A stretch of DNA of 64,000 nucleotides from Bacteroidota bacterium (GTDB lineage Bacteria; Bacteroidota; Ignavibacteria; Kapaibacteriales; UBA2268). Shown here piece by piece: positions 45,738 to 51,208 of this stretch. Each line of letters starts with the position of its first letter. Positions within the stretch are counted from its first letter, which is position 1. Position numbers and translations under genes: made by a program. Location of the stretch: positions 15,060 through 79,059 of the forward strand of contig JBDQHL010000001.1 in NCBI GenBank assembly GCA_040264895.1, read 5' to 3'. Under the pieces are notes generated by a model, which was not told the DNA's origin, made no database searches, and saw only the letters and a list, made by a program, of their open reading frames with translations.

Positions 45738-45768
45738 AACCAACTCTTTTCTAAGGGTTGGTTTTTTT
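45738..45768 (+). terminator. intrinsic terminator T1, left copy of a duplicated 31-nt element
   Basis: Sequence aaccaactcttttctaagggttggttttttt. The stem is ccaactctt/aagggttgg with one G-U pair, followed by T7. It matches 49377-49407 at 28 of 31 positions. Confidence 0.8.
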
Positions 45769-46082
45769 GTTATATTGGGAAAGTCAAAAATAAGAGTTTT
45801 AAAAACATAAGCGGCTAACGTTCGCATATCCATTACAAGAGAGAATATATTAACTAAATAACTATATTTATTTAGTGACTTAACTTCATCAATGGAATAT
45901 TGTTTTACGAAAGTAATAATTGTTTGATTTATGGATGGTTGGGCACAATAAAAAAAAGATACGAATCAATGAATAGACAACTAACCGAAATAAAACAAAA
46001 GAACACATTTGGGTTAGACCATTGTTCACCATAGAACATTTGATAAGTTAATTTAAAAAAATGAGTAGATTTGGATAAATTT

Positions 46083-47603
46083 ATGGATAAAAATGTAATC
46101 ATTATAGGATCTGGTGCTGGAGGTCTTTCTTCAGCAATTCTTCTAGCAAAAAAAGGCTATGATGTAACTGTAATTGAAAAAAATGATAGTTTTGGAGGTA
46201 GAGGTGGAGTATTTACTGCCAAAGGATTTCAATTTGATATGGGACCATCTTGGTACTTAATGCCAGATATTTTTGAACATTTCTATTCTCTTGTAGGAGA
46301 AAACATCAATGATTATTTTAGTTTAAAGAGACTTGATCCTTCTTACAAAATTTGGTTCGAAGAACAAAAAAATCCCATAGAAATGACATCTGATTTAAAA
46401 AAAGATGCCAAGCTATTTGAATCTTATGAGCCTGGGGTCATGAAGAAAATAAATGTTTACCTCAAAGAAGCAGCAGCAAAATATAATATTTCGAAAAACA
46501 CTTTTATTTATAAACCTTTTGATACTGTTTTAGATTTTTTTGACAGCAAAACGATATTTTTATGGACAAAATTCTCTGTCGTTTCCTCTTTACACAAGCA
46601 TATTGCAAAGTATGTAAAACATCCTTTGATTAGAAAAATCCTTCAATATCCTTTGCTTTTTTTAGGAACTTCACCATATAAAGCTCCAGCTGTATATTCT
46701 CTTATGAATCATATTGATTTTGAAATGGGTGTTTTTTACCCAATGGGTGGAATGACAAAAATATTTGAAACATTATACAGCATAGCTAAAAAAAATGGAG
46801 TTAAATTTGTGTTTAACAGTCCTGTAGATAAGATTATTGTAAAAGACAAAATAGCTGTTGGTGTGTCAACAAATGGAACAAATATTATGGCTGACATCAT
46901 TATTTCAAATGCAGATTATCAATTTACAGAAATGCAATTACTAGATAAAAAAAATAGACAGTTTTCTGAAAATTACTGGAATAGCAGAACCTTAGCTCCT
47001 TCTGGATTTATTATATATTTAGGTGTAAAAAAACAATTTAAAGAGCTAAAACATCATAACCTATTCTTTGCTGAGAAATGGAAGAAAAGTTTTGAAGATA
47101 TTTTTAAAGGTAAAACCCTTCCAGAAAGTCCGTCGTATTACATTTGTGCACCTAGTAAAACAGATCCATCTGTAGCACCAGAAGATTGCGAAAATCTTTT
47201 TGTTTTAGTACCAACAGCTACAAATTTAAAGCTTGATGAAAAAACCATTAAAAATTATAGAGATAAAATCTTAAACCACATGACCAAGACTATGAATTTA
47301 GAAGGTTTAGAAGAAAACATTATTTTTGAACGTATTTTTACTGGTCAAGACTTTTCTAAATATTACAATGCTTATAAAGGTACAGCGCTAGGTTTGGCTC
47401 AAAACCTAAGTCAAACAGCTGTTTTTCGTCCAAAAACTCATTCTAAAAAAGTAAAAAATTTATATTACACAGGAGCAAATACTAATCCTGGTATTGGTGT
47501 TCCTATGTGTATTATAAGTTCACAAATTGTTTACAAACGAATTCATGGTATTACGCACGGCGCACCATTATCTGTTGAAGATACAAAATTTGAAAATAAT
47601 TAA
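46083..47603 (+). CDS. phytoene-desaturase-family carotenoid desaturase (CrtD/CrtI-like)
   Basis: About 506 aa from the ATG at 46083. The FAD dinucleotide fold is NVIIIGSGAGGLSSAILLAKKGYDVTVIEKNDSFGGR. The C-terminal motif is YYTGANTNPGIGVPMCIISS. Confidence 0.88.
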   Translation: MDKNVIIIGSGAGGLSSAILLAKKGYDVTVIEKNDSFGGRGGVFTAKGFQFDMGPSWYLMPDIFEHFYSLVGENINDYFSLKRLDPSYKIWFEEQKNPIEMTSDLKKDAKLFESYEPGVMKKINVYLKEAAAKYNISKNTFIYKPFDTVLDFFDSKTIFLWTKFSVVSSLHKHIAKYVKHPLIRKILQYPLLFLGTSPYKAPAVYSLMNHIDFEMGVFYPMGGMTKIFETLYSIAKKNGVKFVFNSPVDKIIVKDKIAVGVSTNGTNIMADIIISNADYQFTEMQLLDKKNRQFSENYWNSRTLAPSGFIIYLGVKKQFKELKHHNLFFAEKWKKSFEDIFKGKTLPESPSYYICAPSKTDPSVAPEDCENLFVLVPTATNLKLDEKTIKNYRDKILNHMTKTMNLEGLEENIIFERIFTGQDFSKYYNAYKGTALGLAQNLSQTAVFRPKTHSKKVKNLYYTGANTNPGIGVPMCIISSQIVYKRIHGITHGAPLSVEDTKFENN

Positions 47604-48467
47604 ATGAAATATTTCTATTGGATTCTCAGTATAAGCAGACCTAGGTTTTGGCCCTATCTTGCAGGACCTTGGGCAGTCGGGATGGTCACTGCATCAGATT
47701 CTATAAAAGATTTTCAGAGCACTATGTTTTGGTCTGGTTTATTATTCTTTCTTTGGCCTGCCAACTTTATTCTTTATGGTATAAATGACTATGCAGATGG
47801 AGACACAGATCAATACAATCCAAAAAAGCAACAATATGAAAACCTTTACAATACAAAACAGAACAAACATTTATTAATTATACTTGCAGCTTTAGCTATA
47901 GTTTCTTTTGTATTTGTTTCCTATTTTCCAAGTTTTGAAGCTCAACTAGTTTTTGTATTATGGTTATTTTTATCTATTTTCTATTCCGTTCGTCCTTTAC
48001 GATTTAAAGCAAGGTTGTTTATAGATTCTCTTTCTAATTTACTTTATATTCTACCTGGAATTATGGCATTTTTAATTTTTCAACCCTTAGAAAATCTCTC
48101 TTGGCCTTTAGTTTTTGCAGCGTGGGTTTGGGCTATGGGAATGCACTTATTTTCTGCCTTACCAGACATTAGAGCAGATAAGGCCGCTAAAGTAAAGACA
48201 ACAGCTGTTTGGCTTGGTTTTAAAAAAGCCACTTTACTCACTTTGCTTTATTACAGTATAGCCGCATTACTTTGTGCAATGTATGCTAATATTTGGCTTG
48301 GTCTATTAGCATTCATTAGCTATTGTATTCCCACAGCTTATATCTATTTCACATCAAACACCCATGGTGTATTTCTTATTTACAAAAAATTTCCTTTTAT
48401 AAATTTAATCAATGGAGCAGCTCTATTCATCTACGTAATTTTCGAATACGACTTACTTATTTCTTAA
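47604..48467 (+). CDS. UbiA-superfamily prenyltransferase, lycopene-elongase (LyeJ/CrtEb)-like by context
   Basis: 287 aa with about 8 TM segments. Asp-rich motifs are NDYADGDTD and LPDIRADKAAKV. The ATG lies immediately after the upstream TAA. Confidence 0.75.
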   Translation: MKYFYWILSISRPRFWPYLAGPWAVGMVTASDSIKDFQSTMFWSGLLFFLWPANFILYGINDYADGDTDQYNPKKQQYENLYNTKQNKHLLIILAALAIVSFVFVSYFPSFEAQLVFVLWLFLSIFYSVRPLRFKARLFIDSLSNLLYILPGIMAFLIFQPLENLSWPLVFAAWVWAMGMHLFSALPDIRADKAAKVKTTAVWLGFKKATLLTLLYYSIAALLCAMYANIWLGLLAFISYCIPTAYIYFTSNTHGVFLIYKKFPFINLINGAALFIYVIFEYDLLIS

Positions 48468-48468
48468 A

Positions 48469-49407: not shown

Positions 49408-49440
49408 GGTACTAAACGGCATTATTAAATTATACCACCA

Positions 49441-49600
49441 CCTGTGCCCCTCTGGAGGAGCTTGTCACGTCTTCAGCGTGAGCTGGCAGAACTTGTTATG
49501 ACTGAGGAGGATTGATTTAACAATGTCCACCTCCGACTTTTGCTGTTATCAAAAGCCACCTCCGCCAGCGGAGAACAACCAAGTCTATTTTTGGTATTGT
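49441..49600. repeat. GC-rich hairpin-repeat tract C
   Basis: Elements are gcccctc-tg-gaggagc (49446-49461), cacg-tcttcag-cgtg, ...gactgaggaggattg, and ctccg-ccag-cggag (49560-49573). This is the same module order as tracts A and B. Confidence 0.7.
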
Positions 49601-49625
49601 TTTTTTTGTTATATTGGGGGAAAGG
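49578..49625 (+). repeat. degenerate third terminator-like copy plus an 18-nt exact repeat
   Basis: Weak stem accaa/ttggt (49578-49582 / 49591-95) followed by T8. The sequence tttttttgttatattggg at 49601-49618 is identical to 45762-45779. Confidence 0.7.
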
Positions 49626-49666
49626 TATAATAAATAAACTAAAAAGCTTATGCTGGCAACAATTGC

Positions 49667-51208
49667 ATGCTTGTGGTGCAAGCTGAAAAGAGCAATTTTT
49701 TGCTAACAGACGGAAAGACAGAGAAGATTAAAAACATAAATTGCGAATTTTGAAAAATTAATAAAAGACAGAAAACATAGAATTAATATAGAAAAAATTA
49801 GACAATTCATAACAAAGAAAGCTGAAGAATTTGGTGCTAAGACAGACAACGAATTTAACAAACCATATGTTGAAAGAAACAACACTGGACAAGAAGCGCT
49901 TAAAGATAATGGAGCATATTTTGGATTTATTCATCCAGAGGAAGAAGCGTCAGGACTTTTCATTGACAATTTTCCCAAACGAGCAAAACAAAACTTGGCT
50001 AGTGTGCCTTGGAATTGGTTCCAGTGGTTTCAAAAATGACTACGAACTTGCAACCTACCCAGGACTTAGAAGATTATTTTCAAAACTGACTGATGAAAAA
50101 GGATTTTGCAAATCTGACTTTTCAGATATCGAAACTAGTCTACCAAAATCAATTACTGGCAGATCAGATTTACAACATATAAAAAAATACGATTAAAACT
50201 TACACTAAATTTTTACCGACATGCCAAATAGTTAACAACCCAGAAAGCGAGAAAGGAGAGCAAATTATTGCAGCCTTTGTCGCAGGTTATGCCAAGCTTA
50301 GAGATTGGCCAACTAACAAAAACCATAGAGAAGCAGTTTCAAATGCTTTGGAGCCGTTTTTAAAGACAGAAACAATTGATGAAACAGAAGAAGTAAAAAA
50401 TCTCTTAAAAGAAAGAAAATACATCGTTCTTCAAGGGCCTCCTGGGACTGGAAAAACAAGGACTGCAAAAAGGGTTGCAGAAAAAATAGGTTCTAAAACA
50501 TTTTTCACTCAATTTCACGCAGAGACCAGTTTCTCCGATTTTATTTTTGGAATTCGACCAGATACAACAAATGAAAAACTGATATACAAATAAAATTTAG
50601 GGAGCTTTTCAAATGCCTTAAAATATGCTATTAGCAACGAAAAAAAAGAAGTCATCTTAATAATTGACGAAATAAACAGGGCGAATCTTGCCAATGTGTT
50701 GGGTCCTGTCTTTTATCTATTTGAACATAAAATGGATGTCTCAAATGTTGAAATTGAAATTGCTCCTGAGCTTAAGGTGGAAAAACTACCTAACAACTTT
50801 TTTGTTATTGCTACAATGAACACAGCTGATAGAAGTTTGGCTGTTGTGGACTTTGCTCTACGAAGACGATTTGCCTGGTATAATCATTCACCTAAAGTAA
50901 TTGAAGGACCAAATAAAAGACTAGACCAGATTTCTGTCAATAAAATATCAGAAAATGAGTTTTTCTTCAAAGAAGATTACGCTGTTATCGAAGAGATTTT
51001 TAATTGGTATGCTTCAAGTACTGAATTAAATCTTCAGCCTGGACAAGGTTACTTTATAGCTAACTCTGAAGATGAAATGAAAAATCGAATTCGTTATGAA
51101 GTATTTCCTTTGATTAAAGAGTATTTGCAAGAAGGTCTTTTACGAAGTGTAAAAGAAGAGTTTAATAACTATTTCTCTACTAGAATAAATCTATCTCTTT
51201 TCGAATGA
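49667..51208 (+). pseudogene. mcrB: McrB-like AAA+ GTPase subunit of a type IV restriction system, disrupted
   Basis: Strong McrB motifs are present: VLQGPPGTGKT, FTQFHAETSFSDFIFG, ILIIDEINRANLANVLGP, FFVIATMNTADRSLAVVDFALRRRF. Track ORFs 50348..50593 and 50696..51208 are in the same frame and are separated only by a TAA at 50591-50593. The N-terminal part needs three +1 frame switches: near 49748-49751, at an uncertain point within 49831-50036 (most plausibly about 49974-49979), and at the A7 run 50181-50187. Confidence 0.8.

Follow-up and report, generated by a model that had tools for sequence, protein, structure and literature searches.

In T4-type phages, the hyperplastic regions carry promoter-early stem-loop (PeSL) cassettes, repeated modules that combine a promoter with a stem-loop terminator, and PeSL recombination leads to modular shuffling and the formation of mini-circles (Arbiol et al. 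2010, PMC2839356). In bacteria, hotspots of horizontal gene transfer can be flanked by core genes and lack genes of mobile elements (Oliveira, Touchon and Rocha 2017, PMC5635113), and insertion with long target duplication leaves direct repeats of >30 bp bracketing the insert (Nobusato et al. 2000; Furuta et al. 2010, PMC2853133). Here we describe a locus that shares traits with each of these systems. It lies in a stretch of 64,000 nucleotides (nt) from a Bacteroidota bacterium (GenBank assembly GCA_040264895.1, contig JBDQHL010000001.1, positions 15,060 to 79,059), which we call the window; positions are window coordinates unless a contig is named, and G000 denotes the genome carrying the window, a 1.73-Mb metagenome-assembled genome (MAG) that is incomplete (86% complete). 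In the window, a trio of carotenoid (crt) genes is bracketed by copies of a terminator hairpin repeat, T, and of an 18-mer, X, that begins in the T-tract of T; the stretch 3' of the first X is called D. We think it probable, if some way short of certain, that the T-X units are paralogous linkers of a hypervariable hotspot in which the crt trio occupies one slot, and that the copies do not stem from the integration of the crt genes.

The repeats themselves are clear. T1 reads AACCAACTCTTTTCTAAGGGTTGGTTTTTTT at 45738-45768 in the window and in a genome-wide fuzzy search, and T2 reads AACTAACCCTTTTCTTAGGGTTGGTTTTTTT at 49377-49407; the two are identical at 28/31 positions, with two differences in the 5' arm, where pairing is kept via G-U, and one in the loop. 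X is TTTTTTTGTTATATTGGG and occurs in exact copies at 45762-45779 and 49601-49618. Both recurrences had been noted in the initial annotation of this DNA, and window and genome-wide search bear them out. Its order of elements (T, X, crt genes, T, hairpin tract, X, mcrBC) is also correct, although it lacks a third, decayed T copy, T3 (49577-49607, 23/31 identical to T1), immediately 5' of X2; the window holds three T copies (T1, T2, T3), not two. The loose similarity it had seen over the ~50 nt after each X did not hold up, since in an anchored comparison of D (45780-45835) with its counterpart D' (49621-49675), 17-26% of random genomic windows align equally well. For the T copies the outcome is the opposite. 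The 180 strict sites of a hairpin with a T-run in G000 form 16,110 pairs, among which only two pairs of distinct sites reach a stem-loop identity of >=21/24, one of them being T1/T2; from the extrapolated tail of the distribution, ~0.1 such pairs are expected genome-wide and ~2e-4 within 4 kb. With so low an expectation, the likeness of T1 and T2 is homology and not chance, as had been supposed. In independent public assemblies (ENA, Logan, JGI), seven contigs match the window at 100% identity over the covered part of 37147-53707, two of them spanning it whole; thus the arrangement is real, not an assembly artefact, and is fixed in the sampled population.

The main evidence comes from the relatives. 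We compared five alleles of the interval between a CADD/PqqC-like gene (CADD) and sprA: those of G000, of its two closest genomes, G003 and G005 (both labelled 'Chlorobiota bacterium' MAGs, G005 being the closest relative), and of two sets of metagenome contigs, L106 (with L107) and L109, found by looking up near-identical CADD proteins. Their cargo is almost entirely different; beyond the blocks shared by L106 and L109, the only cargo common to alleles is a 325-amino-acid (aa) gene in G003, L106 and L109. CADD and sprA bound the interval in G000, G003, L106 and L109, with sprA directly after the variable interval in the last three, and in G005 sprA is not within 14 kb. CADD occurs in nine species of the genus besides that of G000, none of which has crt or McrBC genes beside it. 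In G005, homology to the window runs through CADD, T-X and another 160 nt to ~45940 and then stops, with unrelated genes following; the left breakpoint of the crt segment is therefore not in T-X, but ~160 nt beyond X. G003 has entirely different cargo and three copies of T: TA-X follows CADD, another with a decayed X stands behind a 131-aa open reading frame (ORF), and TB-X-D matches window 45738-45807 at 92% identity and shares the first ~30 nt of D (92% over 72 nt with T1-X1). T2 matches TA at 29/31 positions by our own count. Relative to the single T-X-D of G000 and G005, G003 formally has a 4.2-kb insert between two T-X copies. D' was also compared with the sequence 3' of TA (p ~0.001 against random windows, yet within the range of unrelated leaders), and this likeness was not used.

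The metagenomic alleles L106 and L109 both carry Trx-OsmC-ArsP plus other genes, with two blocks in swapped order, and in each a T follows CADD and a second T-like copy follows ArsP. The second copy of L106 is a partial one, joined to the end of the ArsP gene, and its sequence agrees with window T1 at 27/27 positions; that of L109 carries GTTATATTGAAGGGGGGAA, as does TA of G003. In all, four of the five alleles hold extra T or T-X copies without carotenoid genes, and we name G003, L106 and L109 among them. The T-X profile has seven members (three in the window, three in G003, one in G005), to which L106 and L109 add two each, giving a T family of 11 copies in one orthologous interval across five alleles. 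No member of the profile lies outside the CADD-sprA interval in G000; the T pattern has 0 matches in JGI metagenomes, and among species-representative genomes it is found in G003 and G005 only, besides one match in Paenibacillus taken as chance. As the initial annotation had remarked for the window, no integrase is in sight: the hotspot contigs of the three genomes (G000:C1, G003:C1, G005:C3) lack a tyrosine recombinase (PF00589), serine recombinases not having been searched. G000 has neither Y1 transposase nor reverse transcriptase, their presence in the three genomes is not consistent, and none of these three candidate drivers is associated with the hotspot. CADD is 90-98% identical at the nucleotide level among G000, G003 and G005, compared with 70-88% for neighbouring genes, which suggests recent inter-species recombination at this flanking core gene. 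Two further contigs with near-identical CADD genes, L110 (Logan SRR27540946) and L111 (JGI 3300010430), end 16-45 nt past the stop codon, either within T or a little ahead of it, where an assembly would be expected to break if the island edge varies between strains.

The sequence of T-X points to a junction where one transcription unit ends and the next begins. The folds of T1, T2, TA and the T of G005 range from -14.6 to -17.1 kcal/mol. T1 and T2 each consist of a GC-containing hairpin and a T tract (T7) 3' of a stop codon, the features of an intrinsic terminator, and both were flagged in a terminator scan; orthologues of T1 stand 3' of CADD in G003, G005, L106 and L109. X contains TATATTGG, which agrees with the Bacteroidota-type -7 box TAnnTTTG at 5/6 specified positions. 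This box peaks 31-60 nt 5' of ATG in G000 (125/244 matches), where the extended -10 pattern shows no such positional peak. As X holds a near-match to a positionally enriched box, we infer that T-X is a fused terminator/promoter junction and that X has promoter activity. X1 lies ~290 nt from the crtID start; elsewhere, copies of X stand 25-50 nt 5' of start codons at >=10 loci. The 18-mer is not confined to this locus. X is exact at C76:256, after tRNA-Leu and an unrelated hairpin, and matches at 17/18 positions at C2:30881, after another hairpin; G000 has 4 exact and 11 near copies after T-runs, across the genus X follows six or more unrelated terminator hairpins, and GNTANNNT occurs directly after T-runs 48 times against 21.7 expected.

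The crtID-ubiA-cruF trio, of bacterioruberin type, is by all appearances horizontally acquired cargo, and it sits right after the CADD terminator, so that the description of the carotenoid genes as an insert at a gene 3' end stands. A CruF homologue is absent from all 9 other genomes of the genus, and the best within the order are 28-32% identical. The nearest homologues are on marine contigs, named Bacteroidota or Flavobacteriaceae MAGs in the databases, at 80-84% protein identity for CrtID and 68-74% for UbiA and CruF; their DNA homology to the window spans only 46089-49124. In other lineages the trio stands in two other contexts, one of them 5' of a sulfate transporter. On L052 (ena:ERZ10646659 contig_14205, 4503-9143), the trio has as neighbours a tyrosine integrase and part of a tRNA (26.8 bits in Rfam, model positions 8-63), and an exact direct repeat of 15 nt, ACTCCCATCTTCTCC, which comes from the 3' end of the tRNA, brackets it at 5676 and 9129; this segment looks like attachment-site (att)-flanked, integrase-less cargo, similar to a cis-mobilizable element (CIME). 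No T-like sequence flanks the trio in other lineages. Given this and its other contexts elsewhere, we take the trio to be mobile cargo, and T2 to be local to the island and not the trio's own terminator. The trio's own junctions (45880-46075 against 49120-49380) show no direct repeats or microhomology, no tRNA that could mark a tRNA-linked att site was found in the window, and composition gives no signal (30-34% GC for the trio, 34% for the genome).

Some observations on the trio's genes stand apart from its origin. No phytoene synthase gene lies beside it; G000:C21:13125-14743 has two tandem SQS_PSY genes shared with the relatives, and a third copy, at G003:C5:196635 and G005:C1:703087, was not found in the incomplete G000. 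On a contig of the same strain, L097 (Logan SRR25452727, 8937-10455), crtID is split into three ORFs by two single-base gaps relative to the window, reflecting either an assembly error or a frameshifted variant.

Between T2 and X2 lies a tract of hairpins, noted in the initial annotation, which belongs to a dispersed intergenic repeat family. The family is multi-stem and rich in GGAGG/CCTCC, with modules that include ctggaggagctggcagaacttgt..ctgactgaggagga and tccacctccgtcttttgc..gcaaaagccacctccgccagcggaggac. Searches with nhmmer found nine copies of module M1 and four of module M3 in G000, BLAST matches number at least 13 in G003 and at least 32 in G005, and the flanks differ for every copy. 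The tract thus has the multi-copy intergenic palindromic modules in mosaic combinations by which repetitive extragenic palindromic (REP) sequences and bacterial interspersed mosaic elements (BIMEs) are recognized. A cognate RAYT (PF01797) is not regularly found with it, as there are 0 in the incomplete G000, 0 in G005 and 3 in G003. A permissive Rfam search of 44500-51000 returned nothing credible for the hairpin tract or T-X. Further family copies lie in the window at 27417-27457 and 28617-28659. It had been supposed that a hairpin element split T2 from X2. This may be so: the block 49409-49600 has TTTTTTTG on its flanks, and a canonical module would result from joining T2 to X2. It was not a clean insertion, however, as the block includes 29 nt of unique sequence and its end is a T-like remnant, T3.

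Features of the CADD-sprA interval in the window
Feature	Position	Strand	Basis or remark
CADD/PqqC-like gene, conserved left anchor	45147-45707	+	Pfam Haem_oxygenas_2, NCBIfam TIGR04305
T1, predicted intrinsic terminator of CADD gene	45736-45768	+	13-bp stem, T7 tail; fold -17.1 kcal/mol, z -5.6; terminator scan
X1	45762-45779	+	T-tract plus GTTATATTGGG; contains TATATTGG
D/D-ext, leader and putative regulatory stretch	45780-45940	+	~86% identity to G005; homology ends ~45940
crtID-like phytoene desaturase / 3,4-desaturase	46071-47603	+	NF058655 628.9 bits (cut-off 640); TIGR02734 502.7
UbiA-family prenyltransferase, LyeJ-like, PRK12875	47604-48467	+	family searches
CruF-like carotenoid hydratase	48469-49206	+	Pfam Caroten_synth 1e-40, TIGR03460
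Element A, 3' part of hairpin-repeat family	49342-49376	+	abuts T2; 92% identical to C3:45004-45039
T2, first predicted terminator after cruF	49377-49407	+	fold -14.8 kcal/mol; T-X profile 37.5 bits; no X follows
Element B of hairpin-repeat family	49438-49576	+	module M1 49470-49511, module M3 49526-49565
T3	49577-49607	+	weak hairpin -9.5 kcal/mol; T-X profile 38.3 bits over 49574-49621
X2, second exact 18-mer	49601-49618	+	5' of McrBC remnant
McrBC-type module	49831-52587	+	broken McrB and 460-aa ORF weakly McrC-like
sprA, type IX secretion system (T9SS) translocon, conserved right anchor	52656-59393	-	95-96% aa identity in G003, L106, L109

Two other features of the interval deserve mention. 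In the leader 5' of crtID, a perfect inverted repeat, 8 bp per arm and with 6 nt between the arms, CTAAATAA-CTATAT-TTATTTAG (45854-45875), is identical in G005, where other genes follow; it may be an operator. On the right, McrB is broken into at least two ORFs, an AAA_5 N part at 50348-50593 and a C part at 50696-51208, followed by an intact 460-aa ORF (51205-52587), whose McrC match is weak (E 8.6e-4, 18.5 bits against a cut-off of 338) and which has no Pfam match. The module is probably a decaying type IV restriction unit.

The CADD-sprA interval is not the only place with such modules. At a variable locus 3' of a conserved 454-aa gene, another hairpin, T' (gcagtatctttaattaggtactgc), is joined to the same X. 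G000 has one such copy (G000:C2:24000-38000, L094), followed by a 335-aa gene; G003 has two with other cargo (G003:C5:1604000-1618000, L093); and G005 has three with two extra unrelated genes between them (G005:C3:117000-131000, L092). A hairpin element precedes the hairpin and X in some of these copies, and two copies in G005 share ~215 nt at ~96% by our own reading, comprising hairpin element, hairpin and X. At both loci, the module homology of every copy ends right after GTTATATTG. In addition, C4:35405-35462 and C4:36830-36885, 1.4 kb apart, are near-identical (88%) terminator-like hairpins (gctctacg.taattaaatcatagagc), possibly a third instance in which the terminators around a single gene are duplicated. 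From the second locus and the C4 pair, reiterated terminator(-promoter) modules between cassettes would seem to be a habit of the lineage.

Several explanations compete with paralogous linkers. That the repeats hold no historical information, with similar terminators and a consensus promoter produced by convergence or chance, is very improbable. It would account for the generic nature of X, for the chance-level similarity of D and D', and for the one other distinct terminator pair that reaches 21/24. T, however, is free to vary in sequence as long as it pairs, yet its copies cluster in one interval and none lies elsewhere; this restricted distribution already disfavours convergence, as do the expectation for neighbouring pairs and the fully identical fragment in L106. 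A better case can be made for entry of the crt cassette by recombination at T-X, leaving T1-X1 on the left and T2...X2 on the right, with the hairpin block entering the right T-tract later; the agent could be an integrase acting in trans, a Campbell-type crossover of a circle carrying one T-X, or a long target duplication. The T copies do bracket the crt segment, which weighs against our own reading, and their similarity goes far beyond chance; the flanks formed by TTTTTTTG and the module rebuilt from T2 and X2 fit a later insertion. The trio on L052, between tRNA-derived repeats near an integrase, indicates that it can be att-flanked cargo, the G003 insert formally lies between two T-X copies, and recombinase-free insertions with 30-400-bp target duplications are documented (PMC2853133). 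We nevertheless consider this entry unlikely. The empty-site test fails: 45780-45940, right of T1-X1, matches G005, and the sequence right of X2 does not. T1 and T2 differ at 3/31 positions, as much as or more than T1 and its orthologues (1-2/31), at odds with a recent duplication; G003, L106 and L109 have extra T(-X) copies and no crt genes; the hotspot contigs have no tyrosine integrase; and the block between T2 and X2, with its unique stretch and T3 end, is no clean element insertion. The initial annotation, which had T-X duplicated as the crt cassette integrated (attL/attR or a target duplication), is unsupported in that specific form, and the two findings it had itself named as speaking against it were both made: the 18-mer follows unrelated terminators at unrelated loci, and G003, L106 and L109 carry 2-3 T(-X) copies without carotenoid genes.

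It is also conceivable, but improbable, that T-X and the hairpin-X units of the second locus are cis joints of a chromosomal cassette-shuffling platform in bacteria of the Chlorobiota lineage, with exchange via small circles that arise as module copies recombine, or via a recombinase in trans that uses GTTATATTG as its crossover point. If so, every gene captured would be supplied with a terminator and a promoter automatically, and the circles would be a cellular counterpart of the phage PeSL mini-circles. Slightly less credible again is a more specific version, in which the units are the cis sites of an undescribed gene-capture system with an integron-like outcome, a trans recombinase, and X as the crossover core. 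The common end point of module homology and the mostly co-oriented single-gene cassettes, each followed by a hairpin and X at two loci in three genomes, would fit such a system. The hairpins, however, are locus-specific (T against T'), which argues for local copying and not for exchange of cassettes between loci; the site is too short and lacks conserved R''/R' boxes of the attC type; none of integrase, Y1 transposase and reverse transcriptase is consistently present; truncated or decayed copies and junctions away from T-X are common; and X is more simply explained as a promoter. The linker reading has weaknesses of its own. The -7 box in X departs from TAnnTTTG at one position, the -33 TTTG expected 19-21 nt 5' has no clear counterpart, with only TTTC/TTTA seen by eye in the loops of T1-X and T'-X, and the terminator and promoter activities are predicted ones. 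T2 joined to X2 would make a canonical module, identical at 29/31 (own count) to TA plus X of G003. None of the five alleles shows the state just before the arrival of crt, and exact-protein look-ups of CADD variants gave two new alleles instead of an empty site; the order of modules first and crt later thus rests on parsimony across only five alleles. Finally, some block junctions (~45940, and several in L106 and L109) lie away from T-X, so that module recombination cannot explain all the turnover.

With these points weighed, we still favour T-X as a linker, and propose that it is a compact module of ~45 nt that lies between genes and serves two functions. T, a Rho-independent hairpin, would end the upstream gene, and its T-tract would run into the -7 box TATATTGG, which would start the next unit. 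Copies of the module would mark cassette boundaries in a hypervariable interval between the core genes CADD-like and sprA: T1 would terminate CADD and T2 the trio, T3/X2 would precede the decayed McrBC unit, and X1 with its ~290-nt leader would probably drive the trio. The T paralogues would have arisen from, and probably promote, module recombination within and between alleles, by shuffling, loop-out and re-insertion through homologous or illegitimate recombination, and would predate, or be independent of, the arrival of crt, forming neither an attL/attR pair nor a target duplication. A small-genome marine bacterium would in this manner maintain plug-in slots in which accessory genes are insulated by modules that end transcription and start it again. 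With such insulation, foreign operons, here a bacterioruberin-type trio, could be expressed without disturbing their neighbours. There is also a warning for method: where direct repeats are copies of a regulatory module found several times in one hotspot, their position on either side of an island does not in itself make them scars of integration.

How, then, does the locus relate to known systems? Islands of Prochlorococcus reportedly (Coleman and colleagues, in 2006) contain partial tRNA repeats, att remnants of repeated integration. The present interval is alike in that several copies of a short site alternate with unrelated cargo within a hypervariable island lacking its own integrase; unlike there, the site appears to be a terminator-promoter junction after a protein gene, not a tRNA 3' end, and is often truncated or decayed. 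The attC site of integrons is 55-140 nt long, with R''(RYYYAAC)...R'(GTTRRRY) and L boxes. Integron arrays and clusters of attC sites lacking an integron integrase (CALINs) resemble our loci in their mostly co-oriented cassettes, each followed by a similar hairpin site and variable among relatives, whereas T is a simple hairpin of 26 nt, below the length of any attC and without conserved R''/L''/L'/R' boxes, the cassettes have their own putative promoters, and no IntI is nearby. An attC reading of T-X was rejected because the boxes lack conservation; an upstream TAAC that could pair with GTTA occurs in the window copy and is not conserved in G003 or G005. An attL/attR pair was also rejected: the contigs have no tyrosine recombinase (serine recombinases not searched), the repeat pair is not specific to crt, and the right flank of the single T-X in G005 matches sequence inside the putative island, not that after X2. 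So was a transposon target-site duplication (2-15 bp, identical), as the repeats are 31-45 nt long and ~90% identical and no terminal inverted repeats were seen; G000 has no Y1 transposase, and of all the ORFs of >=100 aa listed for 41-59 kb, those of the cargo and the anchors are assigned to other families.

Long target duplication comes closer, with its direct repeats of >30 bp around an insert and no mobility genes. The 4.2-kb insert of G003, set against G000/G005, formally fits the description of Furuta et al.; the crt segment, set against G005, does not, as its empty-site alignment fails, and the repeats, at 88-90% identity, fall short of near-identity. Published cases are restriction-modification units. 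The CADD-sprA interval qualifies as a core-gene-flanked hotspot: it has the same two core genes where both ends are seen, high turnover, no integrase or Y1 transposase detected nearby, and one flanking core gene (CADD) with signs of elevated recombination. It departs from the hotspot model in that the model needs only homology of flanking core genes, whereas here internal T-X linkers mark many of the boundaries. The nearest described functional analogue of T-X would be the PeSL cassette. As in the phages, short repeated modules of a putative terminator and promoter stand between cassettes that differ among relatives in a hypervariable region of non-essential genes, and by sequence features and positions such modules are found at cassette borders at two loci. 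The differences are that the modules lie in a bacterial chromosome, with a Bacteroidota-type -7 box in place of the sigma-70 -35/-10 of phage PeSL, and that there are only 1-3 copies per locus. T-X would thus extend the idea of the promoter/stem-loop cassette, known from T4-type phages, to a bacterial chromosome.

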